From IMG/VR virus record IMGVR_UViG_3300044675_003079, positions 1-53,580 of that record: 53,580 nucleotides of DNA; one strand, 5' to 3'. The stretch comes from a virus. Its lineage: Duplodnaviria; Caudoviricetes. Shown in pieces: positions 1,534 to 50,982 of the stretch (positions within the stretch are counted from its first letter, which is position 1; the number at the start of each line of letters is the position of its first letter). The notes under the pieces are model-generated. The model was not told where the DNA came from and ran no database searches. It saw only the letters and a program-made list of their open reading frames with translations. Both the position numbers and the translations under genes were made by a program.

Positions 1534-1801
1534 CAACATTCCCGACCTCGGCAACCTTCTCTTGGTGCGTTGGCTTGACGCCCACAACTATCCAATCAAC
1601 TGGACGCTGATAGATGAAGTGGAACCCTACGTCGCTGAAGTAAAGTCAGTGGGTTGGGAAATCTATCGGGACGAAAAACAACTCGTTATGTCAGCAGACG
1701 TCGCTGAGGACATTGACGGCGAAACACAAATCAACGCGTTCTTTGCTATCCCCGTTGGATGCATCGTGAGCGAGGAAATATTGAGGCACAACAATGGCTG
1801 A
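1526..1801 (+). CDS. hypothetical phage protein
   Basis: LVRWLDAH...SVGW...IPVGCIV pattern common in small phage proteins; overlaps both neighbours. Confidence 0.65.
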   Translation: MADNIPDLGNLLLVRWLDAHNYPINWTLIDEVEPYVAEVKSVGWEIYRDEKQLVMSADVAEDIDGETQINAFFAIPVGCIVSEEILRHNNG

Positions 1802-3275
1802 GTATTCAGACCTACAAGAAATCGGTACATCAGGACTGCAACGCGTCGGTGGCTTTGTCATTGACGACTTTGTTGGCGACCTGCGTGGGCTTCGCGGCGC
1901 TAAAGTTTGGCGCGAAATGGCAGACAACGACCCTGTGGTCGGTGCGATGCTGTTCGCCATTGAGCGACTCATCCTGCAAATTGACTGGCGCATGGAGCCA
2001 TTCAAAGAGAACGCTGACGCGATGGTTAAAGACAAAGACCAAGAAGTCGCTGACTTTGTTGAAGAATGCATGAACGACATGAGCGAGTCGTGGGACGCAA
2101 CTCTGTCAGCGATTATGTCGTTCCTCACCTACGGTTACGCCTACTGCGAAATCGTCTACAAGAAACGCGTCACCCCAGACACAACCGACCCAACCAAGCG
2201 TTCTAACTACTCAGACGGCAAAGTCGGCTGGCGAAAACTTGCTCTCCGCGCCCAAGAAACAACATGGCAGTGGATATTTGACGAAGACGGTGGCATCAAA
2301 GGACTAGAGCAAATGGACGCGTCCGCTTCCAGCCACGGCGTTGTGATGATTCCAATTGAAAAGGCGCTCTTGTTCCGCACCTCAACTGCTCGCAACAACC
2401 CCGAAGGACGCTCACTGCTTCGCAACGCGTACCGCCCGTGGAAGTTCAAGAAAACGATTGAGGAAATTGAAGCCGTCGGTATTGAACGCGACCTCGCTGG
2501 ACTTCCCATCGCTTACGTCCCACCACAGTTGCTTTCATCTAACGCCACACCAGCAGAGGCTTCGGCGCGCGCAGGCATTGAACGTCTCATCCGTGGCATC
2601 AAACGAAACGAGAACGAAGGCATCGTGTTCCCACTTGCCTACGATGACCAAGGGCGGGAAATCTACAAACTGTCGTTGTTGTCCTCGGGCGGTTCACGCG
2701 CCTTTGACACCGACAAGATTGTGCAACGCTACGACCAGCGCATCACGATGACTGTCCTTGCTGACTTCATCCTGTTGGGGCATGAGAAGGTTGGCTCGTT
2801 TGCTTTGGGTTCCACAAAGGTTGACTTGTTCACCACAGCAATCGCACAAATCGCCCAATCCATCTGCGACGTTTTCAACCAGCACGCCATCCCTCGTTTG
2901 ATGAAGATGAACGGCATGGACGTGGCGCGCCGTCCGAAGTTGTCCTTCGGTGACATTCACCAAATCAACATCGCTGAACTTGCCGACTTCATTCAGAAGG
3001 CATCAGGCTCGGGCGCTCTTGTTGTGGATGAGGGACTGGACGAATACTTGCGTACCATTTCAGGCTTGCCTCCAAAGGTGGAGTCCGAAGAGGGAGTTGC
3101 CAATAACCCGAATGTTGCCCCTCCTCCTGCCCCTCAAGGTCAACCTCAGCCAGCACCAGTCGCCCCGTCAAGCGCCAAGACACCCCAAGAGGCGCCTGCA
3201 CAGCCAACCGACAAGTCACCAGCGCCTGAAGCCCAACCAGCGCCATCACAGGCTGAACCAGCAAAGACGAAGTAA
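1794..3275 (+). CDS. portal protein (DUF935/Mu gp29-like)
   Basis: 493 aa; NPEGRSLLRNAY..W..K, GIERDLAGLP, GSFALG motifs; Pro/Gln-rich C-tail; precedes the MuF gene. Confidence 0.88.
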   Translation: MAEYSDLQEIGTSGLQRVGGFVIDDFVGDLRGLRGAKVWREMADNDPVVGAMLFAIERLILQIDWRMEPFKENADAMVKDKDQEVADFVEECMNDMSESWDATLSAIMSFLTYGYAYCEIVYKKRVTPDTTDPTKRSNYSDGKVGWRKLALRAQETTWQWIFDEDGGIKGLEQMDASASSHGVVMIPIEKALLFRTSTARNNPEGRSLLRNAYRPWKFKKTIEEIEAVGIERDLAGLPIAYVPPQLLSSNATPAEASARAGIERLIRGIKRNENEGIVFPLAYDDQGREIYKLSLLSSGGSRAFDTDKIVQRYDQRITMTVLADFILLGHEKVGSFALGSTKVDLFTTAIAQIAQSICDVFNQHAIPRLMKMNGMDVARRPKLSFGDIHQINIAELADFIQKASGSGALVVDEGLDEYLRTISGLPPKVESEEGVANNPNVAPPPAPQGQPQPAPVAPSSAKTPQEAPAQPTDKSPAPEAQPAPSQAEPAKTK

Positions 3276-4255
3276 TGCCGTTTATACGCCGTTCGTCCCA
3301 GCCGGCGAAGCGCTCAACGGTCGCTAAAGCAGGTGAGTTGTCCTCAGTGGAGCAGGCTGTCGCGCGCGCGTACGCAGAGGCTGTTCGCCAGTTCCGTGAA
3401 GGAATTAACACGGCACGCGTCGCTGACGCCATCCGTCAGTCCGTTAACGCAAGCCTGAATGCCTTACCGACTGGTTCCATCATCGGTGACCTCCGACCAA
3501 TCGTTGACGCTTTGGTAAAAGAAATAATCAAAGCAGGACGCGCAGAAGCAGGAGCCAGCGCAGGTTTCAAGTTGCGTTTCAACGAGGCTGACCCTCGCGC
3601 CACTCAATGGGCGATGGAACGCGCAGGGCAACTTGTCAAAGGCGTGTCCGACGAGGTTGAGGACTTAATCAACGACGTCGTGACTCAGGCTGTTGACGGA
3701 AAGATAAGCGTCCGCGAAGCCCAACGTCGCCTTCAACGGACAGTTGGTTTGCATCCTCGCTGGCAACAAGCAGTCAACAACACCCACTCGCGTCTTGTGA
3801 AGGGGTTTATCGCTTCGGGGCTTTCCGAAGAGGACGCACAGGCACAGGCTCAACAAGCGTCGCAGAAATACCAAGACCGACTTGTTCGGGCGCGTTCAAA
3901 GAACATTGCACGCACCGAAATCGCTACAGCGCAGAACGAAGGACGATGGGTCGCTTGGCAACAAGCCGATGACGCAGGGCTGGTCAAACTCAACGACTCA
4001 GTAAAAGAGTGGCGCACAGCACCCGAGTTTGTTTCATCAAAGACAGTTGTCTGCACCATCTGCGCACCTCTTGATGGCAAACGCATACCAGTCAGCGAGA
4101 ACTTTCAGACAGGGTTACGCGCCCATCCTGACGGTATCAAAATGCCACCAGCGCATCCGTCTTGCCGTTGCAGGGCTGTCCTTGTCACTAAATCGTTTGC
4201 AGAGATTGAGGCTCAGGTTCTTGAAGCCCGACGTCAGGAAGCACAAAGGACGTGA
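3275..4255 (+). CDS. MuF/gpF-like head morphogenesis (minor head) protein
   Basis: IARTE...A.N.G, KEW, C.IC..LDG, PPAHPSCRC motifs; directly after portal. Confidence 0.9.
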   Translation: MPFIRRSSQPAKRSTVAKAGELSSVEQAVARAYAEAVRQFREGINTARVADAIRQSVNASLNALPTGSIIGDLRPIVDALVKEIIKAGRAEAGASAGFKLRFNEADPRATQWAMERAGQLVKGVSDEVEDLINDVVTQAVDGKISVREAQRRLQRTVGLHPRWQQAVNNTHSRLVKGFIASGLSEEDAQAQAQQASQKYQDRLVRARSKNIARTEIATAQNEGRWVAWQQADDAGLVKLNDSVKEWRTAPEFVSSKTVVCTICAPLDGKRIPVSENFQTGLRAHPDGIKMPPAHPSCRCRAVLVTKSFAEIEAQVLEARRQEAQRT

Positions 4256-4573: not shown

Positions 4574-7500
4574 ATGCCGTATTCCATCACACGAGGTAAA
4601 GGTTGCTCACCGTCTAAGCCGTGGGGCGTCGTAAAAGACTCCGATGGCACCGTGGTCGCCTGTCATGCGACAAAAGAAAGCGCCCTCGCGCAAATACGCG
4701 CCCTCTACAAGGTTGAACCAGCCCTTGCCAAAGCACGCGAACGCGTAGCAAAGCACCCGGGACACGCAGACCAGAAATCCCACGGTGGCAAGGGAACTCC
4801 TGCGCCCTCATCACCTGCTCGTCAAAAGAAAATGACTGGTCATTGGGGACACTCACGCACAGGCTCCACCAGCATCGCGACGGCTTCAAGAGACATGATG
4901 GGCATCCAATCAAGAGTTGATGTGGCTAGTAGAGGCTTGTCAGACACTGATTATAAGCAAGCACAAATCGCTCTGGACAACATAAGCAGTCGCCCTGCGA
5001 TGGTGACCGTTCCTTTGACGCACACCACTTCACGAATGCCAGAACTGGAAAAAGCGCAAACTGGCGATGTTATTCAACTTGGATTGACTGCAACGGCAAC
5101 ACAAGAGCGAGGCTCATACGGTCAAGGGTACGCCGAAGACCACATCAAGGAAATGCAGGTTCTTGTTTTCACAGGAACCAAACCAACCCACCTTTACTCG
5201 GGACGACGCAGTGCACCAGAGGAAGCAATTGTGGCTGGCGAGTTCAGGGTTGTCGGCAAAAAGACGGTTGATGTTCCTCGCACCACATTCAGAAATGGTG
5301 TGTATGAACCGTGGACGTCAAAAGCGACAGTTGTAGAACTTGAGCAGGTTTCAACCTTTGACACATCAACTAAAGCGTTTGTTCCTTTCAGTCAGCCAGT
5401 CGCCAAGCATCTCCCTCATCAGCACGACCAGCAGAAACACGGTACTGGCGGAACAAGCGCACCTGATTCTGCACCGAAGAAACGCAACAAGAAAGACATC
5501 GCCGGCGACGACCAACGCGCCTCTGAACTGTACGCGTCAGGTAAAACATGGGATGAGGTTGCTACCGAAATGGGCTACGCCAACGGTGGTGTCGCTCGGC
5601 GCGCCGGCAAACGCCATGAGGAACGCCAGAAGGACAAGCCGACTGACGATGGGGCTACAAAACCTAAGACCGAAGATGTGACGCCACCAACGCCAGTCAT
5701 CACCCCACCAGTCACGCCGACACCTCTGCCTGTTGACATTGTTAACCCACGCCCGATGACAGGTGAAGACCGAAGCCAGCAAACAGTCCCGACGGATGAC
5801 ATCAACGTTGCGCGCGAAACAGGACGCCCATACGCGCCGTTCACTGAGGAAGGACACTCACCAGAAGTTCGTAAAGCACAGGACAATTTACGCCAAGCAC
5901 AAAAAGACGCTGAAGACCACTATGAGCAACACTTCGGTGAAGAGTCACGTCGTCGCTCTGCTATTCACAAAGAAAAAGCAGAACAACATCAAAAGGCTGA
6001 AAAAGAATGGGAAGCACAAAATCCTCGTGCAAAGGGAGAGGATTATTATCCTTATTGGGAAAGAAGAGATAAAGCCCTCGCTGAAAGAGGACTGGTAAAA
6101 CCCAAAGACAACTCTGGTATTGACGCCATCATCAAAGACGGTCTTGTTGACAAAGTGTATGGCGAAACACAGTCTGCGCTTCACAAGAAAGCAGGTGACC
6201 AATGGGATGTTGTGCGACGGACAGTTCAAGTAGACACAGCCGAACACATACTTGGTGTCAAATCAGTGATGCGCCCACGCATGGAACCAGACTGGGACAC
6301 GCCAAGAACTGCTGAAAACCCACGCCCAATGAAGCAAGCCACCGAAGCCGACTATGACGCGCCCCATGTGCCGGGTGTTGGTTACCCACGAAAACCAGCG
6401 TTTGATTTAGTTTATGAACTTCCAGACGGCAAAGTTGTAAACCATCAAGAGTTGTTTCGTAACAGCGACTTTGACAGCCCTGACATTCAAATCATTAAAA
6501 AAACGGCTGAAAGTCGCTTAGCCAAAATCAGTCAAATCAACACTCGTCAACGCGCCATTGACGGCGATGGAGACGGCAAATTCAACGAAGCAATGAAAAC
6601 ACAACTGAGTCGGCAACAGGCAATTGTTGACAGTCCCAACACAAGAATTGTTATTCACGCACCCGTTTCTGCTGTCGGTGGAATTGTGACTTCTGGTCGG
6701 TTTAAGTCTCAACACGAAACTGGTCGTTCTAAAGGCTATAAAGGCAAAGAAGTCCGTGAGGGTTTTGAAGCGTCGTCAATGGGAACCGTGTTAGGAGACG
6801 ACAAAACAAAAGCACCTATCTATGGCGCTGTCCACGTTGGTGGCGTTCAAGACCCACACGCCTTTTCTTTAGGTCAATATGGTGACGTTGGGTTTGTTCT
6901 TCGTCGCGACACACATGAACGCGCCATGTTCACAGACGGTGACTCACTAAACCTTTGTTATGAAGCGTCACCGATGACTGGAGTACAGACACGGTTTAAC
7001 GGTCATAGCGTTAACGGAGGTGTGGACGCTGTGTCTTCATGGAGACGCCAAGACGATGCAACTTTCCCAGAGAGCCTCCAAAAGAAACCCAAAGCCATAG
7101 CAGGTGGTTATCGCGAAGCACAGGTTCTTGGAGGTGTCAACCTTGCCGACATTGAGTATGTGACCGTTCCTGCTGGCACAAAGTTCCCCGCGGCGTCAAG
7201 ACGCAAACTGGAGAAGGCTGGCATTCCAGTCATTGAGTATGACCGAGGCGCGTTTACTCCGTTGAAGGGAGTTGACGATGTCGGTGAACTTCAATTCACA
7301 CCAGCCAAAGAAGGAGGCATATGGACTCCTCTTCCCGAACCAACCGCGAAGCGCATCGGTGTTGTGGTGGACATTTTCAAGCACCTCGCCGGCAAACACG
7401 ACCAGCGTTCCCACTCAGGCAAATCCTCCAGCCACGGTGGGTATCAACTGAACGAACCAAAGAACCCTCAAGCACCAGCAGGGAAATACGGTGAGGACTC

Positions 7501-8149
7501 CGTTCAAGCCGCGAAAGCAGAACGCACACGCATCGCCGAGATTGAACCAGCGATGACTCGCGAGATGATTGACATCGCCAACACACATGGGGCAAAGATG
7601 GAGGGGCTTGACCACCGTCTAAAGTCCGACGAGTCCCTTGCGCGAAAGGTAGACGCCGAGAAGGACACTGACTTCGGTGGCGACGCCACCAAAACAGCAC
7701 AATCCATGTCTGACGTTGTTCGCTACACAATGACCTACCCCGAAGCGGAGTACGCAGGAAACGTGCAAGCCACCATTACCGACATGGAAGCGCGAGGCTA
7801 CAAAGCACGCGTAAAGAACTATTGGGAAATGGACGACCCTTATCAAGGCATCAACGTTGCTTTGACTCACCCTTCTGGTATCAAAGTAGAGTTGCAGTTC
7901 CACACCCCACGTTCGGTCAAGGTGAAGGAAACAGTCCACGGTTTGCTGGACAAGTTCCGAGCCGAACCCAATGCGCGCACTCGGTTTGGGTTGTGGGACA
8001 GAATGGTGCGTGTCTCCAATCAGATACCTGTGCCACCACCGCCTGAGCAACTCCTCAGCATCGGCGACCTGAAGAGTCAAACGTTCAAAATGCGTGAAAT
8101 GCGTGAAATGGTAAAGCAATTGATGCAGGAGATTAACAATGGCGTCTGA
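4574..8149 (+). CDS. 1191-aa polyvalent protein: leader, tag, ART-like domain, tag, HTH/linker/DUF3626-like domain, tag, RelA/SpoT (Apk/Tas1-like) synthetase
   Basis: Three KH..Q..H tags (K60, K278, K936); RFKSQHETG/PIYGA/YREAQVLGGV motifs; RLKS..SLARK/DVVRYT/YQGIN/ELQFHT motifs. Confidence 0.8.
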   Translation: MPYSITRGKGCSPSKPWGVVKDSDGTVVACHATKESALAQIRALYKVEPALAKARERVAKHPGHADQKSHGGKGTPAPSSPARQKKMTGHWGHSRTGSTSIATASRDMMGIQSRVDVASRGLSDTDYKQAQIALDNISSRPAMVTVPLTHTTSRMPELEKAQTGDVIQLGLTATATQERGSYGQGYAEDHIKEMQVLVFTGTKPTHLYSGRRSAPEEAIVAGEFRVVGKKTVDVPRTTFRNGVYEPWTSKATVVELEQVSTFDTSTKAFVPFSQPVAKHLPHQHDQQKHGTGGTSAPDSAPKKRNKKDIAGDDQRASELYASGKTWDEVATEMGYANGGVARRAGKRHEERQKDKPTDDGATKPKTEDVTPPTPVITPPVTPTPLPVDIVNPRPMTGEDRSQQTVPTDDINVARETGRPYAPFTEEGHSPEVRKAQDNLRQAQKDAEDHYEQHFGEESRRRSAIHKEKAEQHQKAEKEWEAQNPRAKGEDYYPYWERRDKALAERGLVKPKDNSGIDAIIKDGLVDKVYGETQSALHKKAGDQWDVVRRTVQVDTAEHILGVKSVMRPRMEPDWDTPRTAENPRPMKQATEADYDAPHVPGVGYPRKPAFDLVYELPDGKVVNHQELFRNSDFDSPDIQIIKKTAESRLAKISQINTRQRAIDGDGDGKFNEAMKTQLSRQQAIVDSPNTRIVIHAPVSAVGGIVTSGRFKSQHETGRSKGYKGKEVREGFEASSMGTVLGDDKTKAPIYGAVHVGGVQDPHAFSLGQYGDVGFVLRRDTHERAMFTDGDSLNLCYEASPMTGVQTRFNGHSVNGGVDAVSSWRRQDDATFPESLQKKPKAIAGGYREAQVLGGVNLADIEYVTVPAGTKFPAASRRKLEKAGIPVIEYDRGAFTPLKGVDDVGELQFTPAKEGGIWTPLPEPTAKRIGVVVDIFKHLAGKHDQRSHSGKSSSHGGYQLNEPKNPQAPAGKYGEDSVQAAKAERTRIAEIEPAMTREMIDIANTHGAKMEGLDHRLKSDESLARKVDAEKDTDFGGDATKTAQSMSDVVRYTMTYPEAEYAGNVQATITDMEARGYKARVKNYWEMDDPYQGINVALTHPSGIKVELQFHTPRSVKVKETVHGLLDKFRAEPNARTRFGLWDRMVRVSNQIPVPPPPEQLLSIGDLKSQTFKMREMREMVKQLMQEINNGV

Positions 8150-9164
8150 CCTGACAACTGGTGTGTTCTTCTACCTTCGTGTGCTAGATGAAAAGCCTCT
8201 GGCTTTGTTCCGTTTGGATGTGGACACCGACAGGAAAGAAATCAACGAGACCGTCTGGGATGGTTCCAGTTGGCAAGAAACCAATCGCCTGACGATGTAC
8301 ATCGGTTACGGCTCTACCGAGGTTGAGCAGGTACTAGAACGCGACGCCACACTCGCTTTCCCCGACGCATTCAGAGACAAAGCACCAAACTTCAAGCGCA
8401 TCATCCCGAGCGTCATGTCAAAGCATCTACAGCATGACCAAAAGACCCACGGACGTGGCGGTGGACGCGCCTCAACTCTAAATCCAGACAATCACCTCAG
8501 CGCCCCATTCGGTGCGCAAATAGGAGATGATGGAATTTTCGTGGTTGATGAGGACGGAATGGTTGGTTTCCTTGAAGAGCAAACTTCTGCTTATGAAAAC
8601 GTCACAAAAGCCGAAGGGGAGTCTGTAATCGCTTATCAATCCGCAATGTATTACGAACAAATAAATGGTGGTTTACGTCAGGAAATGGCAATGGGTGAAA
8701 CCGATATGCTTGATGATGAAACACGGAAAATCATTGATGACGTTGACTTTGCGATTGATAAAAGTGGATTTAGTGAAGACATTGTTGTTTTCAGAGGTCT
8801 AGATGACGAACAAGGAATGATTTACGACATGAAAGTTGGCGACTCTTTCACCGATGCTGGATTTCAATCAACAACTCTTAATCCTATTGTGGCTACTTCT
8901 TTTGCTATGGGGGATAACTTTTCAGGTAACCCTGTTATCCTGCGCATTAAAGTTCCTGCTGAAAGCCCTGCCCTTGCGGCAGACATGGCGAGCAACCGAG
9001 CAGTCGGACAAAAGTTACAACCCAATTCTGAGGACGCGTCTATGGTTGGGTTTAGCATTGGAGCAGAAGTGATATTGCCTCGCATGACGATGTACGAAGT
9101 TACAGGCACATCAATTGTTGATGGTGTGTCGCTTCTTGATGTGACGGTGGTGCGCAATGATTGA
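8139..9164 (+). CDS. putative immunity-like N-domain + tag + VIP2/C3-type ADP-ribosyltransferase
   Basis: Y..IN..LR, VFRG, GDSFTDAGFQSTT, VILRIKVP, AEVILPR motifs of the ADPrib_exo_Tox/VIP2 fold. Confidence 0.8.
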   Translation: MASDLTTGVFFYLRVLDEKPLALFRLDVDTDRKEINETVWDGSSWQETNRLTMYIGYGSTEVEQVLERDATLAFPDAFRDKAPNFKRIIPSVMSKHLQHDQKTHGRGGGRASTLNPDNHLSAPFGAQIGDDGIFVVDEDGMVGFLEEQTSAYENVTKAEGESVIAYQSAMYYEQINGGLRQEMAMGETDMLDDETRKIIDDVDFAIDKSGFSEDIVVFRGLDDEQGMIYDMKVGDSFTDAGFQSTTLNPIVATSFAMGDNFSGNPVILRIKVPAESPALAADMASNRAVGQKLQPNSEDASMVGFSIGAEVILPRMTMYEVTGTSIVDGVSLLDVTVVRND

Positions 9165-10896
9165 TGTGTCTAGATTTGCTGGCAAGGCGAGCGACTACAA
9201 GCGTTCTACCCAAGTGTCTCAAACAACCACAGTTACCGAAAAGCATCTCGCCGGCAAGCACGACCAACGCACCCACGGTGGTGGTGGAGGCGTTAGCGCC
9301 CCTCGTGACACGGCTCACGCCAAACAGAAACAAGCGTGGGAACTTCACGAGCAAGGTAAAACGTGGGAGGAAGTCGCGAAAGAGGCTGGCTACGCGAATG
9401 GTGGCGCCGCGCGTCTGGCTGGCAAAGCGCACGAGAAACGTGTGAAAGCGAAAGGCGAAGGCGCTGAAGTTCCGAAGCCTACTGAGGTTGTCACACCAAA
9501 ACCCAAAACCGACAAAGAAGGCGCTAAAGCAATCAAAGACGCGCAGGCTCTTGTTGACAAAGCAACTGGTGGTCGCACCGTTGCTGATGTCATGGCGGAT
9601 GAACGCAACAGCCAAACGCGAACAAAAGAACCATCCGCAAAAGAGTTAGAGGTTACAGAGGCTGTTATTAAATCGGGTGCAATTCTTCGTGGTGAGGTGG
9701 ACAGACGGCGTGCGTCGCTCGGTAAAGATGTGGTTGAAACTGCGAAATCCGAAGTTGAAGTGCTCAAAAAGGATAAAGCATTGACGCAAAAGCGTGTTGA
9801 TGAAGTGGATGCTCAAAGAGCAACGCACCGCGAGAAAATTGATGCAGAGGTAATGGCAAGTCCCAGATTAGATGTTGAGTTGAATGACAGAATAGACCTA
9901 CAAATATCCAAAACGAAAAGTGAACGGTTGATTGACGGATTGGATGCTGACAGGGCTGGAGTAATTAAAGAGATGCGCGAATATAACCGTCTCTTTGGCA
10001 AACGGGGCGAAGTTGTAAATGCGGACGAGCGTGACGCTTGGAGAAAGCAACGAGCAAAAGAGCGATTCCCTGATGACAAAAAGGCTCAAGAGGAGTATGC
10101 GGCGGTTTTAACAGAGGGAAGGTGGGGTGCTCAGAAAGTTGAGCGTTCTTTGGAAATGTCTGGTGGCAAAATGAAAGTGCTAAAGGATGAGGAAAACAGA
10201 ATAAACGGTTTGTTTTCGGAAGTGGCTAACGCTAACCATGCTGTCGCAAAGGAAATCAGGAACAGGGAAAGATTGATTAAGGATGGCGGAGTAACTCCCG
10301 AACAGAACGCTGAAATCATCAGGTCAGTCTTGATTGATTCTGGTCGCACCATGACAGACAAGCCAGCACAAACGTTGATTGGAAGCAAACCAGCAGTGGC
10401 GGAGTTACGGGCTGAGTTAGTTAAAATCCCTGATGAGTTGTGGAACACTGGTGCTTTCCCACGAATGAATGTAAACGCGACTTCGGGGCGTGGTCATTGG
10501 AGTTCGTCTAAAGCAGAAATTAAGACCGATGGTAAAAAAGGAACTGGGCGACGCGCATCTACTCTTTTGCATGAGGCGACTCACGCTGTTGAGGACATGA
10601 ACTATCAAATTCCACAATTAGAGTTTGTGATGTCGCATCGTCGCGCAAAAGGACAACAACCACAAAAACTTAACGACATCCGTAAGGGTGGAGGATATAG
10701 AAAAGACGAAGTTGCTATTGAGGATGCATGGGCAAACCCATATTCAGGCAAAGTTTACAATGGCGGAGGTCGTCGTAACAATTGGGAGATAATGACGATG
10801 GGCATAGAATCCCTCTATAAACGTCAAGACTATCCGCACGACATTGCCGATGAAGACCACTTAAACTTTGTTATGGGAGTTTTGGCTTACGCATGA
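9157..10896 (+). CDS. tag + HTH + coiled coil + zincin (HExxH) metallopeptidase
   Basis: STLLHEATHAVE and downstream WEIMTMGIE; HTH paralogous to the one in ORF 4574. Confidence 0.75.
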   Translation: MIDVSRFAGKASDYKRSTQVSQTTTVTEKHLAGKHDQRTHGGGGGVSAPRDTAHAKQKQAWELHEQGKTWEEVAKEAGYANGGAARLAGKAHEKRVKAKGEGAEVPKPTEVVTPKPKTDKEGAKAIKDAQALVDKATGGRTVADVMADERNSQTRTKEPSAKELEVTEAVIKSGAILRGEVDRRRASLGKDVVETAKSEVEVLKKDKALTQKRVDEVDAQRATHREKIDAEVMASPRLDVELNDRIDLQISKTKSERLIDGLDADRAGVIKEMREYNRLFGKRGEVVNADERDAWRKQRAKERFPDDKKAQEEYAAVLTEGRWGAQKVERSLEMSGGKMKVLKDEENRINGLFSEVANANHAVAKEIRNRERLIKDGGVTPEQNAEIIRSVLIDSGRTMTDKPAQTLIGSKPAVAELRAELVKIPDELWNTGAFPRMNVNATSGRGHWSSSKAEIKTDGKKGTGRRASTLLHEATHAVEDMNYQIPQLEFVMSHRRAKGQQPQKLNDIRKGGGYRKDEVAIEDAWANPYSGKVYNGGGRRNNWEIMTMGIESLYKRQDYPHDIADEDHLNFVMGVLAYA

Positions 10897-11201
10897 AAAT
10901 TGACGGATACTCAGACCAGCGTGAAGCGCACGTCATGGAGGAAGACGACAAGTGGGTTTTGTACCCCGACGAGTTTGCCATCTTTGCTTCAACCTACACA
11001 TTCCCAGATGAAGTCCCTGTTGCTGTGCCGGGCTTTGTCGCGCCAGACATTAATTCTAAAGAACCTCACATTGTCGTTGCGACGTGGAAAGAAATGATGA
11101 GGGACTATTTGTCGGTTGATGAACCACCGTATGAATTTGAAGTGACTGGCGTTGAAGAGTCCGAGGCTGAAGCCGACGACTCCGAAGGCATCGTCTACTA
11201 G
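10893..11201 (+). CDS. small acidic protein, candidate immunity/partner of the upstream peptidase
   Basis: ATGA-coupled to ORF 9157; very D/E-rich, 102 aa. Confidence 0.55.
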   Translation: MKIDGYSDQREAHVMEEDDKWVLYPDEFAIFASTYTFPDEVPVAVPGFVAPDINSKEPHIVVATWKEMMRDYLSVDEPPYEFEVTGVEESEAEADDSEGIVY

Positions 11202-11240
11202 GGGTTAGTAGCGTCACTCTCTTTGCTACGCTAACGAACA
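11197..11240 (+). promoter_or_regulatory. putative leaderless promoter with ACTAGGGGTTAGT element and -10 TACGCT
   Basis: 13-mer identical to 23351-23363; TACGCT at 11227-11232, 8 nt before the ATG; no SD. Confidence 0.45.
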
Positions 11241-12323
11241 ATGCCAACCAAGCCTGAACCAGCAACCGAAACGGAAGATGCGTCTGAGTACACCGTCTAC
11301 AACGTCACGCTCCGTCAGAAGGTCATCTACGAAGCAACTGAACAAATCGTAGAGCGCTTCGGTCGGTTTGACCGTGGCAACGGCGCTGACGGTGCTCACT
11401 ACATGGACGGCGACGACAACCCTTTCGTCGCCGAAGGAATGAACTGCACCAACTGTGTCGCGTTCCGAGGTGGGCGTGCCTGCGAATGGGTAGAGGGCGA
11501 CATTTCCCCTAACGGACTCTGCAAGTTTTGGATTATCCCCGAGGACTTAATGAGCCACGCGATGGTCAAAGCATCTGACTCTTTCAGCCCTCCACAGGGC
11601 GTTCAGGATGAGGCTAAGAAAGCAATGAAGTGGATTGCCGACGGTCACGCTGGAGATGGTTTCACGGCTGTCGGTTCCGCACGCGCGCGCGACCTTTCCA
11701 ACGGTAGCAACGTGTCACTTGAGACTGTCAAACGGATGCGTTCCTATCTTGCACGCCATGAGGTGGACAAGCAGGGCAAAGGTTGGAGTCCCGGCGAGGA
11801 CGGTTTCCCGTCGGCTGGTCGTGTCGCATGGGCGGCGTGGGGCGGAGACGCTGGACGCACTTGGGCGAACGATGTGTTGGCAGGAATTGACCGCGTCAAC
11901 AAGGCTGTCACGCTGGACGTCATGGAGGAGCAGAAGTTCACGCTCGCCCCGTGGTACATCCCGAACAAGTACGACGCCCACGACGAATGGACAGACCCCG
12001 AGGAGTTGCAGAAAGCACTCTGGGATTACGTCAAGTCAGGCGACCGAGCCATCCGTCTCCAGCACAACACCGAAGTGGTCGCTGGCGAGTGGGTTGAAGC
12101 GATGACGATGCCTTTCCCCGTAAACGTCCCGATGCGCAAGTCCGATGGACGTATTGAGCAGGTTGAATACCCCTCTGGGACGGTCTTTTTGGGCGTCAAA
12201 TGGGACGATTGGGCGTGGGACATGGTCAAGAACGGCGAAATCACTGGTTATTCCATTGGTGGCTCTGCCGAGCGACTTGAGGTAGGTTTAGACAACGGCA
12301 TGACCGTGATAGGAGAAGCATGA
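11241..12323 (+). CDS. multidomain prohead protease: HiPIP-like Cys domain + conserved phage domain + XkdF-like (S78_2-type) protease
   Basis: C-terminal D.H.E...PEELQKA, RLQH, W..VKNGEITGYSIGG; N-terminal CxxC-x7-C-x12-C; position in the head module. Confidence 0.8.
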   Translation: MPTKPEPATETEDASEYTVYNVTLRQKVIYEATEQIVERFGRFDRGNGADGAHYMDGDDNPFVAEGMNCTNCVAFRGGRACEWVEGDISPNGLCKFWIIPEDLMSHAMVKASDSFSPPQGVQDEAKKAMKWIADGHAGDGFTAVGSARARDLSNGSNVSLETVKRMRSYLARHEVDKQGKGWSPGEDGFPSAGRVAWAAWGGDAGRTWANDVLAGIDRVNKAVTLDVMEEQKFTLAPWYIPNKYDAHDEWTDPEELQKALWDYVKSGDRAIRLQHNTEVVAGEWVEAMTMPFPVNVPMRKSDGRIEQVEYPSGTVFLGVKWDDWAWDMVKNGEITGYSIGGSAERLEVGLDNGMTVIGEA

Positions 12324-12997
12324 ACGAAATGACACCAGCAGAACGCGTGACCCTCAACGCGCTACGCGCAACAGCCCTCGCCAAAATGAGCGATGCCGAC
12401 TTCGCAAACCTTGAAACCGAAGTAGCCAGCAAAGGACTACGCAACCTTGATGGTTGGTTCGGTGCGCAAGTCTCCAAAGCAGTAGAGCAAGTCCTCAAGC
12501 ACCCGGGTCATGCGAATCAGGCAAGTCACGGTGGAGGCAAAGGCAAAGGTGGCTCCCCATCCTCTGACATTGCAGGACGCGCAAATTCTAGACGAGAAGA
12601 CGAAGCAGGCGACAAGGTTGGCTACGGTGCAAATCAAGCCGCCGAGAATATGGGCGCTCACTCAAATGAAATGAACCAAAAGATTTATGGCAAAGATGGT
12701 GCTTCCAAAAAGATGACAGACATTGACGAGGTTGAGTTGATGGGAATTAACGACTCACTCAGTTCGGCGGCTGAAAGCCTCACCCTTTTGTCATCTGGAA
12801 AACCTCAAAAACAGCACGACCAAATCATTAGTGTTCGTCGCCAGTTAAGAGAAACGCGTAGCGACGCCGTAAGACAACTAAGTCCTGCAGTGCGCAATAT
12901 CGCAGTTCGCGCAATTGATAAGCACGTCGCCGAAGTTGACAATTTGTTGAGTCTCCATCGTGAAGCGTGGACTGGCGTCGGTGGAACGTTTGAATAG
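12320..12997 (+). CDS. tag-bearing head-associated protein, unknown helical cargo
   Basis: KHPGHANQASHG at K60; N-domain similar to ORF 13006. Confidence 0.75.
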   Translation: MNEMTPAERVTLNALRATALAKMSDADFANLETEVASKGLRNLDGWFGAQVSKAVEQVLKHPGHANQASHGGGKGKGGSPSSDIAGRANSRREDEAGDKVGYGANQAAENMGAHSNEMNQKIYGKDGASKKMTDIDEVELMGINDSLSSAAESLTLLSSGKPQKQHDQIISVRRQLRETRSDAVRQLSPAVRNIAVRAIDKHVAEVDNLLSLHREAWTGVGGTFE

Positions 12998-13005
12998 GAG
13001 CCAAA

Positions 13006-13854
13006 ATGAAAGACGCTGATAAGGCATTGATGGACGGGTTGGCTTTGGTGACTGACCTGCGCGAAGACGAATGGGCGCTTGTGGTGTCCGACGTTGAGAA
13101 GGCTGGTGGAGTTCGCGAATGTCGTGGACACGCCCGTGTTGAGGTTGAGCGTGCCGTAGCAAAGGCTCGTACGTTGGTTGCCAAACACCCCGGTCACGCC
13201 AATCAAGCCTCGCATGGTGGCAAAGGTGGCGGAGGTCAGAAGAGCCAGTCAGACCGTGGTTCTAGCGATGTGAGAACGGCTAAGAATAAAGCATCAGCCC
13301 ATCAGGAGATTGAGTCCATTACGTCACAACTCGCGTTTGCGAGGTCTAATGGCGACAAAGAAGTCGTCGGAATGCTTGAAGAGCGTCGTGCTGGCGCTCG
13401 GCAAGCCTACAAAGAACGCTTTGGAGAGGCTCATCAGGCTGGCACTGAGCCATCTGGCTCAAAAGCAGGCGACGCTGGAGTTGCACAATCAGCAAAAATA
13501 CTCTCCAACGCTAAAGACGGTGCGATGTACCACGACGCTGGTTCCATTGCGCAAGAACAAGCGATGATGGGTAAAGCAACCAAAAGCGATGCAATTGGTC
13601 GCTCGCACAAACACGACCAAGATTTCGCTGTGTCCATGAGAGACAGCAATGCCTACGCTGAACGCGCAACTGCAGTCCGTCGTGCGCAACCCAACAATCC
13701 AAAAGCCGAGAAGATGGCGCAGGCTCTTGACCGTGACTCTCGCAAGTTCCAAACAGAAGCCGCGATATCAATGTCGCTGGCAAGCGCATGGTCGTCTGTT
13801 GCGATGGACTTAGGCGCGTCCGAGTCTGACCTGATTAGCAACAACAGACTCTAA
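13006..13854 (+). CDS. tag-bearing head-associated protein, unknown Ala-rich helical cargo
   Basis: KHPGHANQASHG at K60; AGGAG SD. Confidence 0.75.
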   Translation: MKDADKALMDGLALVTDLREDEWALVVSDVEKAGGVRECRGHARVEVERAVAKARTLVAKHPGHANQASHGGKGGGGQKSQSDRGSSDVRTAKNKASAHQEIESITSQLAFARSNGDKEVVGMLEERRAGARQAYKERFGEAHQAGTEPSGSKAGDAGVAQSAKILSNAKDGAMYHDAGSIAQEQAMMGKATKSDAIGRSHKHDQDFAVSMRDSNAYAERATAVRRAQPNNPKAEKMAQALDRDSRKFQTEAAISMSLASAWSSVAMDLGASESDLISNNRL

Positions 13855-13905: not shown

Positions 13906-14664
13906 ATGGGTGCTCGCAAGATGGTCAAACTTAAAGTCGTAGAGACTTCAGGCGTAGACCACCCTGCTCATCTAAACGAAGGGTGGGTTGTTATGAAAAA
14001 CCAAAACCCAGAAACCACTGAAGGAGCAGAAGTGTCAGAAGAGACCGAAGCAATTGAGACGACCGAGGCTGATGTAATCACCGAGTCGTTGGTAAAAGCG
14101 CAAGAGCGCATCGCAGAACTTGAAGAGGCTCTGGAAGTTGAAAAGGCAAAGAAAAAGCCTGCCTTCCTCGCCGAAGTTGAAGTTGAAGCAGAAGACGAAG
14201 ACGAAGAGGACATGATGAAATCAGTCCCCGAGGCTGTTCGCGAAATGCTCAACAAGGCAAAGGTTGAAGCAGACGACGCTCGCGCCGAACTTCGCAAAGA
14301 ACGCGAAGAGCGCCGTGACGCAGAGTTCGTTGCTAAGGCACAGTCAGCATGGGGCTTGCTCCCTGTAGACGCCACTGAAGTCGGCAAAGCAATGCGTCGC
14401 CTCTCAGACGTTGACGCGCCACTCGCAGAAACAATCGCTAAGGCACTTGATGCCGCTAACGCACAAGCCGAATCAGCAAACATCTTCGCTGAAATCGGCA
14501 CAGCAGGACGACCAGACACGGGCGATGCTTACGGCAAAGTTCAAGCAATGGCTAAGTCGCTTGTCGCTGATGGAAAGGCATCAACAGTTGAACAGGCTGT
14601 TGTTGACCTCATCTCAGCCGACCCAAACCTCTACCACGAATACGTCGCCGAGAAGCGCCGTTAA
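13906..14664 (+). CDS. capsid scaffolding protein (N-terminal protease-like strand + acidic coiled coil)
   Basis: ETSGVDHPAH N-terminus; E/A/K-rich helices; immediately upstream of decoration and capsid genes; -10-like TACACT shortly before the ATG. Confidence 0.75.
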   Translation: MGARKMVKLKVVETSGVDHPAHLNEGWVVMKNQNPETTEGAEVSEETEAIETTEADVITESLVKAQERIAELEEALEVEKAKKKPAFLAEVEVEAEDEDEEDMMKSVPEAVREMLNKAKVEADDARAELRKEREERRDAEFVAKAQSAWGLLPVDATEVGKAMRRLSDVDAPLAETIAKALDAANAQAESANIFAEIGTAGRPDTGDAYGKVQAMAKSLVADGKASTVEQAVVDLISADPNLYHEYVAEKRR

Positions 14665-14682: not shown

Positions 14683-15078
14683 ATGGCATACGAAATCGCC
14701 AACTCAGCCGTCAAAATCACTCTCGTAGCAGGTGAAGACCTCTCCGCGAAGCAGTATTACTTCGTGAAAATCAACTCGTCAGGACTTGCAGTGCTTTGCT
14801 CAGGTGCAACTGACAAGCCAATCGGCGTACTTCAAAACGACCCTGCTTCTGGTGAAGAAGCAGTCATCACAGTTGTTGGTGGCTCAAAGGTTGTCGCTGG
14901 TGCTTCCATTGACGAAGGTGTCCTTATCGGCACAGCGTCAACTGGCAAGGCTGACGCAAAAGTTCCGGGGACAGACACAACCGAATACGTTGTTGGAACT
15001 GTAATCCTCGCCGCTGGTGCGGACTTAGAAATCCTCACTGCCCTCATTAACTGCTCCAACCCTCACCGCGCGGCGTAA
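14683..15078 (+). CDS. capsid decoration/cement protein (DUF2190-like)
   Basis: AGEDLSAKQYYFVK...PIGVLQN.P..GE.A; position between scaffold and capsid. Confidence 0.78.
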   Translation: MAYEIANSAVKITLVAGEDLSAKQYYFVKINSSGLAVLCSGATDKPIGVLQNDPASGEEAVITVVGGSKVVAGASIDEGVLIGTASTGKADAKVPGTDTTEYVVGTVILAAGADLEILTALINCSNPHRAA

Positions 15079-15108: not shown

Positions 15109-16065
15109 ATGCCTCAGCCAACTAGCAACCAAGTCCATGTAGACGCCATTCTGACCAACATTTCGGTCGCGTATATGCAGAGGCAGGAAAACTTTATTGC
15201 CTCTCGCGTATTCCCGATTGTTCCTGTTGAGAAGCAGTCGGACAAGTATTTCACATACACCAAGAACGACTGGTTCCGTGACGAAGCACAGCGTCGCGCG
15301 GACGGTACCGAATCAGCAGGTGGCGGTTACAACATCTCCACTGGCACCTATCAGGCAGACGTTTACGCCTTCCACAAGGACATCGGTGACCAGACTCGCG
15401 CAAACGCAGACGCACCAATCAACGTTGACCGCGAAGCCGCAGAGTTCGTAACAAGCCGTTTGATGCTCAAGATGGAGACCGAGTTCGTTAACAACTTCTT
15501 CTCAGCGAGCGTTTGGGCTAACGAAGTCTCACCATCGGGTAACGATGAGTGGAGCGATTACACCAACAGCGACCCAATGGACGACATTGAAACCGCTAAG
15601 GCGGCAATTCTTGGAACCACAGGTTTTGAACCAAACACACTCGTACTTGGTTACGACGTGTTCCGTGTTCTCAAGAACCACCCAGACCTTGTTGACCGTC
15701 TCAAGTACACATCCAGCAACACAATCACATCAGACATGATGGCTCGTTTGTTTGACGTTGACCGTGTTCTTGTGGCTAAGGCTGTCAAGGCAACGAACAA
15801 CGAAGGTGGCACAGGCGCTTACGCTTTCACACACGGCAAGCACGCCCTCCTCTGCTACTCGGCTCCATCGCCGGGCTTGCTCCAACCATCTGCTGGTTAC
15901 GTCATGTCATGGACAGGCGTTTCTGCAGGACTTGGTGCAACCATTGGTTCCAGCCGACTTCGTATGGACAGCCTTCGCGCTGACCGTATTGAGGCTGAAG
16001 TTGCGTTTGACATGAAAGTCATCGCGACCGACCTCGGTTACTTCTGGAACGGCGTAGTCGCCTAA
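15109..16065 (+). CDS. major capsid protein
   Basis: 318 aa; HVDAILTNISVAY...FIASRVFPIVPV, PNTLVLG motifs of lambda gpE-like capsids; strong SD. Confidence 0.88.
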   Translation: MPQPTSNQVHVDAILTNISVAYMQRQENFIASRVFPIVPVEKQSDKYFTYTKNDWFRDEAQRRADGTESAGGGYNISTGTYQADVYAFHKDIGDQTRANADAPINVDREAAEFVTSRLMLKMETEFVNNFFSASVWANEVSPSGNDEWSDYTNSDPMDDIETAKAAILGTTGFEPNTLVLGYDVFRVLKNHPDLVDRLKYTSSNTITSDMMARLFDVDRVLVAKAVKATNNEGGTGAYAFTHGKHALLCYSAPSPGLLQPSAGYVMSWTGVSAGLGATIGSSRLRMDSLRADRIEAEVAFDMKVIATDLGYFWNGVVA

Positions 16066-16775: not shown

Positions 16776-17267
16776 ATGGCGACAAACTTTCCCACCTCTT
16801 TAGACGCTCTAAGCAATCCTGTCTCAACCGACACTCTGGCATCGCCAGACCACGCTGTTCAACATTCCGACATCAATGATGCTGTTGAAGCGTTGCAGGC
16901 GAAGGTTGGCATCACGAGTTCAACAGACACGGCGAGCCTTGACTATAAGGTCGCCAAACGTCCCATAACAACGAATGCGCAGATTGCTTCGTACACCCTT
17001 GTTCTTGCCGACGCTGGCAAACTTGTAGAAGTCGGGAATGCGTCTGCGAACACGCTGACTGTTCCTCCTAACTCAAGCGTTGCTTTCCCTGTGGGAACCG
17101 TCATTGATGTCCTTCAGACTGGCGCTGGTCAAACAACCCTCACAGCCGGTGCTGGTGTCACAATCAATACCGCGATTGGGCTGAAACTTCGTGCTCAATG
17201 GTCTCCTGCTTCGCTTATCAAAAGGGCGACTGACACATGGGTTGCTCTTGGTGATTTGAGCGCCTGA
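16776..17267 (+). CDS. virion structural/fibre-associated protein
   Basis: ATNFPTSLD...H...NDAVEALQAKVG head; YTLVLADAGK...W..LGDL module. Confidence 0.7.
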   Translation: MATNFPTSLDALSNPVSTDTLASPDHAVQHSDINDAVEALQAKVGITSSTDTASLDYKVAKRPITTNAQIASYTLVLADAGKLVEVGNASANTLTVPPNSSVAFPVGTVIDVLQTGAGQTTLTAGAGVTINTAIGLKLRAQWSPASLIKRATDTWVALGDLSA

Positions 17268-18436
17268 TGCTTGGTGTAGTTGCATCCAGCGCTTACCCCA
17301 TTCCAACTGTGACGTTGGGGGCGACAACTAACTTCAATCAAAACCTCGCGACCCTTAACGCAACCGTCAATGGGCAAGGTTTAAGCACGACCGTTACGAC
17401 TCAGTACAGTTCTAACGGTGGCTCAACGTGGTCTACAGCCGTTTCCATGACTGGTTCTCCCACTTATGGTTCAACAGCGATGTACGCCAATGTGACTGGT
17501 TTGGCTGTAGCGACTGCCTACATTGTCCGAGTCACAGCAACAAACGCTAAAGGTTCAGTTGTTGTTCAGAACAGCAACGGCAACTTCACAACGTGGACGC
17601 TCAAGACCTTTATCCAAACAACTGCAGGTTCATACTCAGTTTCTATTCCTTCAGTAACACCAACAGGTGGTTCGGCTATCGCTCCGACCATTTACGAAAT
17701 GCTGATTTACGGTGGTGGTGGGGGTGCTAACTACTCTGGAGGTGGTGGTGGTGGCTACAGAATTGCCGCCTCTAAAGCATCATCGGCTAGTGGAACTCAA
17801 AACGTGACAGGAACCATCGGTGCTGGTGGTGCTGGTGGAGATGGTGGTGGTGGAGCAGGAAACGGGACGGCAGGAGGTGCGACAACACTGGTTATTGGGG
17901 ATACCACTTATTCTGCTGGTGGTGGTGGAGTAGCAAACTGGCTCACCAATGGTGGTGCTAGTGGTGCTGGCGATAATCCTTCCCGAGCAGGAGGAACAGG
18001 TAACTATGGGTACACCTATTTCACGGGCAATTATGTGCAGGTCATTGTTGGTTACAACACTTACTGCTGTGCGACTGACCCTAAGTATGGTTTCTGCACT
18101 CAAACGTGCCCTGACTACAACAGCCCCATCTACGGCAACGACACCAATCAACCCATCTACGCAACCGATTACAACCGTTATGCAGGTGGTGGAGGTGGAG
18201 GCACCGACACTGCAGGAGGCAACGCCACATACCCAGACGGTGGTGGTAACGGTGGTAACGGTGGAGGCGCTTACGGCTTGAACGGTGGTAACGGTGGTCG
18301 TGGTGGAGGAACAGCATCTAACGGTTCAAACGGGACTGTCGTTGCTGGTGGAGTAGTTGTCGGTACTGGTGGTGCAGGTTGGTTTGGTGCAGGCGTCGCA
18401 GGTGGTGTCACCTTTAAGTATTATGGGGTCGCATGA
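17267..18436 (+). CDS. FN3-like + glycine-rich fibre/receptor-binding protein
   Basis: TGL...Y.VRV.ATN FN3-like strands; GGGGG-rich domain with a Cys/Tyr-rich insert. Confidence 0.7.
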   Translation: MLGVVASSAYPIPTVTLGATTNFNQNLATLNATVNGQGLSTTVTTQYSSNGGSTWSTAVSMTGSPTYGSTAMYANVTGLAVATAYIVRVTATNAKGSVVVQNSNGNFTTWTLKTFIQTTAGSYSVSIPSVTPTGGSAIAPTIYEMLIYGGGGGANYSGGGGGGYRIAASKASSASGTQNVTGTIGAGGAGGDGGGGAGNGTAGGATTLVIGDTTYSAGGGGVANWLTNGGASGAGDNPSRAGGTGNYGYTYFTGNYVQVIVGYNTYCCATDPKYGFCTQTCPDYNSPIYGNDTNQPIYATDYNRYAGGGGGGTDTAGGNATYPDGGGNGGNGGGAYGLNGGNGGRGGGTASNGSNGTVVAGGVVVGTGGAGWFGAGVAGGVTFKYYGVA

Positions 18437-50713: not shown

Positions 50714-50982
50714 CAGACCAAACACGCATCGTCGTAGACGGAGCCACCGCCGGCTACGCCTTTTGCCAAGCCCTCGGACTACCAGAAGAACGCGTCACGC
50801 GCGTACTTCTCCAAGCCGAACCCGGCAAGCCAATGTTCGCCCACATCACCATCCTGATGAACGACGAAGAAGTCCAGCAGGTTTGCACCTTCCTTGAACC
50901 GCTAGAGACACTTGACCCACTTGACATTGAAATGCCCACTCAACAACCAGCGAAGGACAACGGACTATGGACACCCAACTAA
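50710..50982 (+). CDS. hypothetical protein
   Basis: ATGA-coupled. Confidence 0.55.
   Translation: MTDQTRIVVDGATAGYAFCQALGLPEERVTRVLLQAEPGKPMFAHITILMNDEEVQQVCTFLEPLETLDPLDIEMPTQQPAKDNGLWTPN

Follow-up and report, generated by a model that had tools for sequence, protein, structure and literature searches.

The head gene region of a Caudoviricetes virus, IMG/VR record IMGVR_UViG_3300044675_003079, raises the question of why one short histidine-rich peptide, here called the tag, stands in front of a series of otherwise unrelated protein domains. The record comprises 53,580 bases, is estimated to be 93% complete, and was analyzed over its whole length, which is called the window below. An earlier interpretation of the DNA letters, the sequence-only reading, had reported seven tag copies in five open reading frames (ORFs) of the head module and had proposed that they mark effectors packaged in the virion. 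Our results suggest that the tag is probably a reusable signal for the loading or processing of virion-carried proteins. It is not private to the window phage and recurs in many uncultivated phages.

A six-frame scan of the window with the regular expression KH-x(2-4)-H-x(0-1)-[DN]Q-xx-H-[GS] gave exactly seven matches, all on the plus strand, in frame, within five long ORFs, and between the MuF and capsid genes. Three of them are located in an ORF of 1191 amino acids (aa) (4574..8149, +), namely tag 1, KHPGHADQKSHG, at residue 60 (4751..4786), tag 2, KHLPHQHDQQKHG, at residue 278 (5405..5443), and tag 3, KHLAGKHDQRSHS, at residue 936 (7379..7417). Tag 4, KHLQHDQKTHG (8421..8453), begins at residue 95 of a 341-aa ORF (8139..9164, +) and tag 5, KHLAGKHDQRTHG (9241..9279), at residue 29 of a 579-aa ORF (9157..10896, +). 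The identical tags 6 and 7, KHPGHANQASHG (12497..12532 and 13183..13218), both begin at residue 60, in a 225-aa ORF (12320..12997, +) and a 282-aa ORF (13006..13854, +), respectively. In control sequences, 200 shuffled by single nucleotides and 200 in triplet blocks, the strict pattern had no match. A looser pattern, H-x(0,1)-[DN]Q-xx-H, with a mean of 0.3-0.5 and a maximum of 3 matches in the shuffles, retrieved the same seven copies and no others in the six frames of the 53,580 bases. The number of copies reported before and their confinement to the head module were thus reproduced.

Tags 6 and 7 agree in 12 of 12 amino acids and in 26 of 36 nucleotides, and 8 of the 12 codons differ synonymously. 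Because identical copies differ in this way, the repeat appears to be kept at the protein level, as the sequence-only reading had argued, and together with the absence of matches from all 400 shuffles the codon differences indicate a short linear motif under protein-level selection. According to a DNA repeat finder, the tag copies are only 60-86% similar; a DNA-level recombination repeat was rejected on the strength of this value and the synonymous changes. In principle, the tag could also be a neutral or structural remnant of a linker, or a junction that eases recombination, without any signaling function. The location at module junctions would fit this idea, as would the fact that modules are clearly shuffled between phages. 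We nevertheless consider it highly improbable, since the peptide is conserved at the protein level through synonymous changes, the DNA identity of the copies is poor for homologous recombination, and the core of the motif persists across lineages whose head proteins share no BLAST similarity.

Each copy in the window is followed by the Gly/Ser/Pro-rich stretch that had been described as a linker, and then by a domain-sized segment. The leaders comprise 28-94 residues, with 94 in the 341-aa ORF, 28 in the 579-aa ORF, and 59 in the 225-aa and 282-aa ORFs, and the 1191-aa protein consists of a leader followed by three successive units of tag and module. Three copies with the sequence K-H-P-G-H-A-[DN]-Q (4751, 12497, and 13183) all begin at residue 60 of their own ORF and share a helical-looking leader, 'A.AKAR..VAKHPGH', by which phmmer aligned the 282-aa ORF with the beginning of the 1191-aa polyprotein.

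The spread of the tag was analyzed with a degenerate DNA pattern representing K-H-L-x-G-x-H-D-Q-x-x-H, which by our own arithmetic for equal base frequencies is expected by chance about once per 1.4e11 positions. This pattern matched at least 117 stretches in IMG/VR. With a looser peptide pattern, 481 copies were counted in the 117 listed loci, 91 of which contained 2-13 copies, and in each of the 117 loci the copies were on one strand only. A 30-column profile made from 138 copies was run against 1.84 billion cluster representatives and retrieved 1,495 proteins with E≤1e-3, including 404 at ≤1e-10 and 24 at ≤1e-30; the total is a lower bound, as proteins with a single copy are unable to reach significance. 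In a collection of 5.8 billion proteins, a 44-residue profile matched 1,870 of 8,000 scored candidates. The proteins that were looked up were all metagenomic and either unnamed or labeled 'hypothetical' or 'GNAT superfamily'. Profile searches, as suggested together with the sequence-only reading, uncovered tag homologues widely, with diverse cargos.

The highest number of tags per protein, 20 profile-matched copies, was found in a metagenomic protein of 7,059 aa (P0003). Its tag variant, K-H-G-T-G-D-Q-S-P-H-G-N-W-A, has a Gly in place of the middle His, its tags separate many near-repeats of a single module of about 330 residues, and the polyprotein ends in two zincin modules.

Outside metagenomic sequences the tag was nearly absent. 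Among 185,579 prokaryote genomes the DNA pattern had one lone match, a single copy without the usual context that we take for chance, so the tag phages are essentially unseen as prophages. A megablast search with the head module found no match in 50,697 phage records. A window tag of 24 aa and a consensus-like tag of 30 aa gave no tblastn match with E≤10 in these records and in 72,556 plasmids; such a search sees near-identical copies only, since by our own arithmetic a perfect 16-residue match reaches about E 0.1, and its negative outcome therefore carries little weight. A profile search of solved structures found nothing relevant. The nearest deposited relatives of the capsid protein, with 48-53% identity, belong to Arthrobacter and Microbacterium phages, and in the head regions of two cultured relatives, Laroye and Ottawa, no tag was present in the 38.7 and 20.8 kb examined.

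In 465 distinct contexts the core of the tag reads K-H-(L-x-G-x or x-x)-H-D-Q-x-[ST]-H-G-[NS]-W-A-x-G, and in its most general form K-H-x(2-4)-H-[DN]-Q-x-[ST]-H-[GA]. The copies form two length classes of 285 and 180 members, besides a small class of 15 with K-H-P-G-H-x-D-Q that includes three of the window copies. Among the freely varying positions, the Gly after the last His is present in 86% of the copies, the Trp in 64%, the Ala in 62%, and Ser or Thr before the last His in 81%. Upstream of the core, Val or another hydrophobic residue occupies the second position before the Lys (77-92%) and Pro is common at -3; this profile is alike in N-terminal and internal copies. For the isolated tag no regular secondary structure was predicted, with a predicted local distance difference test score (pLDDT) of 64.

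A sister motif (type II) has the consensus K-[YF]-x-x-[DN]-Q-P-R-D-x-x-G-R-W-[TS]-x-G-G-G, is followed by a Gly-rich linker as well, and mostly lacks histidines. In a phage with an S78-type protease (G004, locus L010 = G004:20606-32824), nine module boundaries carry K-Y-S-E-D-Q-E-R-D-D-H-G-R-F/W-A-G-G; two His tags are present besides, and one of these shares its polyprotein with five of the nine sister copies. A DNA pattern for D-Q-P-R-D-x-x-G-R-W matched at least 120 further IMG/VR stretches (L122-L241), some of them in records whose names begin with 2 instead of 33, and the type II peptide had only weak matches (E 3-8) among the phage and plasmid records. Both motif types share D-Q, and most copies outside the window also share G-x-W/F-A/T followed by Gly. 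Judged by their sequences, the two types look interchangeable. Of the 28 tags of the S78 group, which include both types, 26 are preceded by (K/R)(S/T)-hydrophobic, and in the XkdF groups V or L is found at -2, which suggests that the upstream residues may form a protease-specific site beside a common core element.

Tags follow one another at a median distance of 214 aa (minimum 75) in the listed loci, and the tail after the last tag has a median length of 254 aa. In 269 database proteins with 999 tags, the shortest tail was 35 aa and the 5th percentile 150 aa. A tag was never found at a C-terminus. The first tag of these proteins begins at a median position of residue 20, within 15 residues of the start in 25% and within 40 in 74% of the cases. 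On the basis of the spacing, the N-terminal starts, and the never-terminal tags, the unit is a short leader, the tag, a flexible linker, and a cargo, which occurs once per ORF or repeatedly in polyproteins.

The cargos themselves are highly diverse, as expected for a tag that had been described as portable. The 427 complete cargo segments formed 96 sequence clusters, with 64 singletons. The largest cluster, an ADP-ribosyltransferase (ART) family, comprises 92 segments and includes one from the window. The 96 cluster representatives matched 26 Pfam families, each of which matched one or two of them, and most representatives matched nothing. Among the families were further ARTs, Zeta toxin, topoisomerase IB, DnaB/Toprim, 2'-5' RNA ligase, GNATs, metallopeptidases, a PI3/4-kinase-like family, and MuF, and relatives combine ART, GNAT, ParB-like, and zincin domains.

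As tags are found at every domain boundary, they might be polyprotein processing sites only, cut by the prohead protease or by a zincin of the array and without a role in targeting. The zincin motif HExxH is six-fold enriched in tagged frames (0.43 vs. 0.07 per 1000 aa); it was present in 29 of 43 loci with at least five tags, and 7 of 10 genomes or genome parts have it in tagged ORFs. G033 and G030 lack it in their tagged ORFs, which argues against processing as the sole role. A flexible linker behind the tag would keep a cleavage site accessible, and in some phages the tag lies directly behind an S78 protease domain; however, the tag phages possess three protease families, one of them with an unrelated fold. 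In the text of their study considered here, Iyer et al. (2017, PMC5512222) proposed that metallopeptidases process polyvalent proteins. The N-terminal position of most first tags is difficult to reconcile with processing alone: 74% of them begin no more than 40 residues into the protein, often behind leaders of only 10-20 residues, where cleavage would separate nothing and a plain inter-domain cutting site would be superfluous. Known prohead protease sites are defined by two to three residues, rather than by about 16 as in the tag, and the T4 prohead protease follows the cleavage rule (L/I)xE. In view of these arguments, we regard a site serving processing only as unlikely.

Autocatalytic and translational mechanisms were considered as well and discounted by reasoning only. 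For nickel-assisted self-cleavage at (S/T)-x-H, Ser is present at the required position in only 42% of the copies. Asn/Asp self-cleavage and a 2A-like ribosome skip fit poorly with the N-terminal copies.

The linkage of the tag to head genes is not limited to the window. In relatives, the recurrent arrangement is that portal and MuF precede a 7-10-kb tag array, which is followed by the XkdF protease, scaffold, and capsid genes. A homologue of at least one of eight window head proteins, which comprise portal, MuF, XkdF, capsid, and neighboring head proteins, was detected in 87 of the 117 listed loci and, among the 69 loci of 8 kb or more, in 57, in agreement with the head-module linkage anticipated from the window. 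Nine whole records and an 80-kb part of a record were inspected, and in each of them all tags were confined to one region and one strand.

In several lineages, head proteins themselves are tagged. In a group of 36-kb phages (G004, G021, and G033), a tag and further segments come immediately after the S78 protease domain. MuF was found inside tagged ORFs of two large phages (G014 and G030), and precomputed Pfam domains placed MuF in one further tagged protein (P0209) and XkdF in another (P0210). That such head-resident proteins can be the first element before a tag counts in favor of a role in capsid targeting. The lack of predicted structure, with a pLDDT of 64 for the isolated tag and <50 in its protein context, is as expected for a docking or processing motif. 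Complex predictions for the window XkdF domain (alignment A4), the zincin (A5), and zinc with the tag peptide (A2) gave scores of 0.08 and 0.18 against a mark of 0.32; they were run without controls and speak neither for nor against binding.

The explanation we prefer is that the tag serves as a capsid-targeting and processing signal for polyvalent effector modules, similar to the capsid-targeting sequence (CTS) of phage T4, and we assign to it a probability of about 0.5. In the polyvalent, presumably virion-associated arrays, the tag marks the N-terminal boundary of every effector module. Leader and tag together would dock the modules one by one in the procapsid as it assembles, polyproteins would be divided into their modules at the tags during head maturation, and the freed enzymes and toxins would then exit the capsid together with the DNA.

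Several observations weigh against this signal function. The motif, its position and portability, the diversity of its cargos, and its link to head modules are seen directly in the data, and docking, cleavage, packaging, and ejection are steps that we infer. Copies inside polyproteins are superfluous for targeting alone, the MuF protein and the protease of the window are untagged, and Gly-rich sequence replaces in the window copies the W-A seen in 62-64% elsewhere. Part of the apparent invariance is due to construction, as the collecting patterns prescribed K, H, H, D/N, Q, and H. Most of the counterevidence concerns the lack of a shared receptor. The sequence-only reading had expected the tag to co-occur with XkdF-type proteases, yet this association is not strict: 18 of 34 records contained XkdF, as did 9 of the 15 records with a completeness of 90% or more. 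Portal_Mu was present in 8 of 16 records, and MuF was undetected in the S78 group, also with iterated profiles of window head proteins. No family was common to all ten genomes or genome parts in a tag-masked all-versus-all BLAST, in phmmer clustering of cargos, and with iterated profiles of the eight head proteins. A simple docking model does not readily accommodate a motif that is nearly invariant but has no equally invariant partner in the phages.

The diversity of the head machinery is apparent from further comparisons. An HK97-type S78 protease was found in three of the five XkdF-negative complete records, and in one record a ClpP-type protease gene adjoins a tagged ORF. The S77 family PF03420 had no match in five tag-bearing records; its control matched no genome either, which makes this result uninformative. 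Capsid proteins of different tag-bearing lineages could not be aligned by BLAST. The families shared most widely across the ten genomes or genome parts, with the tags masked, were by their coordinates mostly tagged ORFs.

The absence of a phage partner common to all lineages would be explained if the tag acted in the host after injection, as a handle for a conserved bacterial factor or in metal binding, timed activation, or degradation, since it could then function with unrelated head machinery. The conserved residues (His, Asp, Gln, and Lys) are chemically reactive and the isolated motif is predicted to be unstructured, both of which would suit such a role. The type II motif, which is mostly free of His, speaks against metal binding as the shared function, and the strict linkage to the head module and the MuF and protease carriers in front of tags point to assembly. 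Furthermore, no host protein with the motif was found, the lone match in the 185,579 genomes being the only one. A role in the host is therefore quite unlikely in our estimation.

Portability without a common receptor would also result if the tags were self-recognizing multivalent 'stickers' which, connected by flexible spacers, gather the modules in one internal body, with a tagged resident head protein nucleating this body or drawing it into the procapsid. The sticker-and-linker layout is directly visible in the sequences, polyproteins carry many tags, up to 20, and in some lineages MuF and proteases are tagged. However, neither of the latter two is tagged in the window, and weak multivalent contacts need no motif of such specificity. 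We judge both the internal body and its recruitment by a tagged resident protein to be very unlikely.

A more far-reaching proposal, which we put forward only tentatively and rate as doubtful, is a packaging code independent of the head machinery, in which any protein would be loaded and delivered once it has received about 25 residues, made up of K-H...H-D-Q..H-G with a short hydrophobic leader before it and a Gly linker behind it. The tags would then either recognize each other, forming a sticker-and-spacer body seeded by a tagged resident protein, or recognize a universal feature of procapsids. The mostly His-free motif K-[YF]-x-x-[DN]-Q-P-R-D-x-x-G-R-W would represent a sister code, and the system would work in tailed-phage capsids that share no detectable portal, protease, or capsid sequence.

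For the preferred function as a targeting and processing signal, the gene context in the window is of interest. The array is preceded by a Mu-type portal protein (1794..3275, +; Pfam Portal_Mu, E 1.2e-36; phrog_113, E 1.6e-86) and a MuF-like minor head protein of 326 aa (3275..4255, +), which matched Phage_Mu_F in residues 181-301 (E 5.2e-9) and head-morphogenesis PHROGs. No other Pfam family was found in the MuF ORF (3275-4255) and no fused effector domain, so the earlier statement that MuF itself carries no toxin stands. The head-module gene list further includes an 86-aa ORF between MuF and the 1191-aa ORF and a 102-aa ORF between the 579-aa ORF and a protease ORF of 360 aa (11241..12323, +). 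Downstream of the tagged ORFs follow an acidic 252-aa protein (13906..14664, +), a 131-aa head protein (14683..15078, +; phrog_673 'head scaffolding protein', E 2.6e-19), and the major capsid protein (15109..16065, +; phrog_1005, E 8.5e-100). The acidic protein matched phrog_13547 of unknown function, is syntenic upstream of the capsid gene in relatives, and is a putative scaffold according to its position and composition. The array is thus encoded among virion genes, between MuF and the XkdF protease and capsid genes, as is characteristic of polyvalent proteins.

The 360-aa ORF is composed of a Cys-rich N-domain, a middle domain (115-218), and an XkdF-type prohead protease domain (229-347; Peptidase_S78_2, E 1.5e-15, 57.8 bits against a curated cut-off of 24). 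An alignment of 31 XkdF sequences (A4) has an invariant His, an invariant Asp, and a Ser conserved in at least 90%. The window ORF has no tag; its relatives carry one either after the Cys-rich N-domain, in contexts such as 'CKFWIIPE...KH..GKHDQ', or after the middle domain, and the window lineage seems to have lost the tag that these relatives keep. The C-terminal 123 residues of gp18 of Arthrobacter phage Laroye (14381-15502), annotated as 'RNA ligase', are 64% identical to the XkdF protease domain of the window. The N-terminal part of gp18 contains an H-x-T-like stretch, 'HPHITV', which we take to be typical of 2H phosphoesterases, and gp87 of Arthrobacter phage Ottawa (10142-11281) has the same annotation and position. 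In Laroye, a cargo-like enzyme thus seems to be fused straight onto the protease without a tag. The 2'-5' RNA ligase family is also present among the tagged cargos.

Of the cargo labels proposed for the window, several were borne out. The VIP2-type ART assigned to the 341-aa ORF was recovered as ADPrib_exo_Tox in residues 150-327 (E 4.5e-17), and is a member of the most populous cargo cluster, which holds 92 of the 427 segments. Module 3 of the 1191-aa ORF, proposed to be a RelA/SpoT synthetase, is an alarmone synthetase, matching SaSAS (PDB 8vx3) with an E value of 1.7e-15, and shares about 30% identity with the toxin domain that phages of Streptococcus pneumoniae carry in their MuF proteins. 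Other labels held in part. For module 2, described as DUF3626-like, the window sequence itself matched this family weakly (E 0.0012, under the Pfam cut-off) and a homologous cluster representative more strongly (2.5e-9). Module 1, described as ART-like, is only a lead in that direction, the nearest ESM Atlas clusters being ADP-ribosyltransferases with a score of 0.95. With an alarmone synthetase, a DUF3626-like module, and a module nearest to ARTs, the 1191-aa ORF combines at least two disparate activities in the manner of polyvalent proteins.

In the 579-aa ORF, where a helix-turn-helix (HTH) and a zincin had been proposed, a middle region separates the tag from a C-terminal zincin-like domain (about 10444-10893). 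The zincin is supported by the HExxHxxE motif, conserved in five of five aligned homologues (A5), and by homologues in other tagged ORFs. For the candidate HTH labels, the sole matches were to phrog_645. The 225-aa and 282-aa ORFs had been described as unknown helical domains, and the 225-aa ORF had no Pfam or PHROG match. For the 282-aa ORF, this description is supported by an all-helical single-sequence AlphaFold2 model, in which residues 61-82, the tag region, have a pLDDT <50 and form the least confident segment. No usable match to this ORF was found in the ESM Atlas. A fold search with the model (13006-13851) gave as the sole clear match an uncharacterized UniProt protein of 293 aa from 'uncultured Caudovirales phage' with 42% identity, and relatives of tagged ORFs are therefore already present, unannotated, in public protein databases.

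A few genes elsewhere in the window were noted in addition. Two adjoining genes (49517-52435) contain duplicated ParB-like nuclease domains, in one case fused to a DNA methyltransferase domain. Laroye has several ParB-like genes near the terminase, and ParB-like modules also occur as tagged cargo in relatives. On the 3' side of the capsid gene, a 389-aa ORF (17267-18436) is Gly-rich and a 512-aa ORF (19520-21058) consists of periodic Ser/Gly/Ala/Thr-rich repeats ('...ASGSGxG...').

A published description of the tag was not found in the searched literature, with supplementary files outside the search. Capsid-targeting peptides, polyvalent proteins, and MuF toxins are known kinds; the sequence-defined tag, the rule of its N-terminal or inter-domain position, its spread over unrelated head machinery, and the sister motif are without a description in that literature. 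If the tag is indeed a loading or processing signal, it provides a sequence rule for recognizing virion-delivered effectors in uncultivated phages and a catalogue of at least 1,495 protein clusters, mostly with family-less cargo, representing early-acting enzymes, toxins, and probable counter-defense proteins. It would also show how phages that lack covalent MuF-toxin fusions load multiple proteins simultaneously, and it would offer a short portable handle for packaging chosen proteins in phage capsids, for which mainly the T4 CTS is available today. As the tag is nearly unchanged across unrelated portals, proteases, and capsids with no common partner detected, the question arises of what reads it.

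Among known systems, the cargo-loading peptides of encapsulins resemble the tag in that a short conserved peptide with a flexible linker is attached to unrelated enzymes; these peptides attach to the inside of an HK97-fold shell. Their consensus differs from that of the tag, and they are mostly located at the C-terminus. Moreover, encapsulin shell proteins are related to one another, whereas BLAST does not align the capsid proteins across the tag lineages.

The polymorphic MuF toxins that temperate phages produce (Jamet et al. 2017, PMC5576092) are encoded at the same position in the head module, and their C-terminal toxin is homologous to module 3 of the window at about 30% identity. In these proteins, an N-terminal MuF and a C-terminal toxin are covalently fused in one polypeptide, whereas in the window MuF stands alone and the toxin is encoded elsewhere with a tag. 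The MuF-toxin protein of phiARI0462 is untagged at the junction, and each of the 30 alignments listed for module 3 begins after the tag. Since the same alarmone synthetase domain is fused to MuF without a tag in cultured Streptococcus phages, the tag may replace the covalent fusion to a carrier. Terms for a linker or processing motif were not found in Jamet et al. (2017) outside the reference list. In contrast to the temperate MuF-toxin phages, the tag pattern is nearly absent from the 185,579 prokaryote genomes.

Polyvalent proteins, as described in the main text of Iyer, Burroughs, Anand, de Souza, and Aravind (2017, PMC5512222), combine disparate effector enzymes such as ARTs, zincins, GNATs, and ParB-like proteins, are encoded beside head genes, and are predicted to be injected with the DNA. 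The 1191-aa ORF and its relatives fit this description. A term search of that main text found no such inter-domain or N-terminal motif, which the supplementary alignments may hold. Polyvalent proteins in the described form are fused polypeptides, whereas here many modules are separate ORFs, each with its own tag.

The closest parallel is the CTS of T4, described in the sections of PMC9026906 considered here as a short N-terminal propeptide of IPI-III and Alt that guides unrelated cargos to the interior of the prohead, where the prohead protease cuts it off, and that functions on foreign proteins too. On this basis the tag and the CTS are alike in position, portability, and cargo diversity. Like the CTS, the tag is placed N-terminally before unrelated cargos, at a median of residue 20 and within 40 residues in 74% of the proteins. 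The proteases differ, being of the S77 type in T4 and of the XkdF type in the window. Whereas the CTS is described as tied to T4-like phages, the tag spans unrelated portals and proteases and recurs inside polyproteins.

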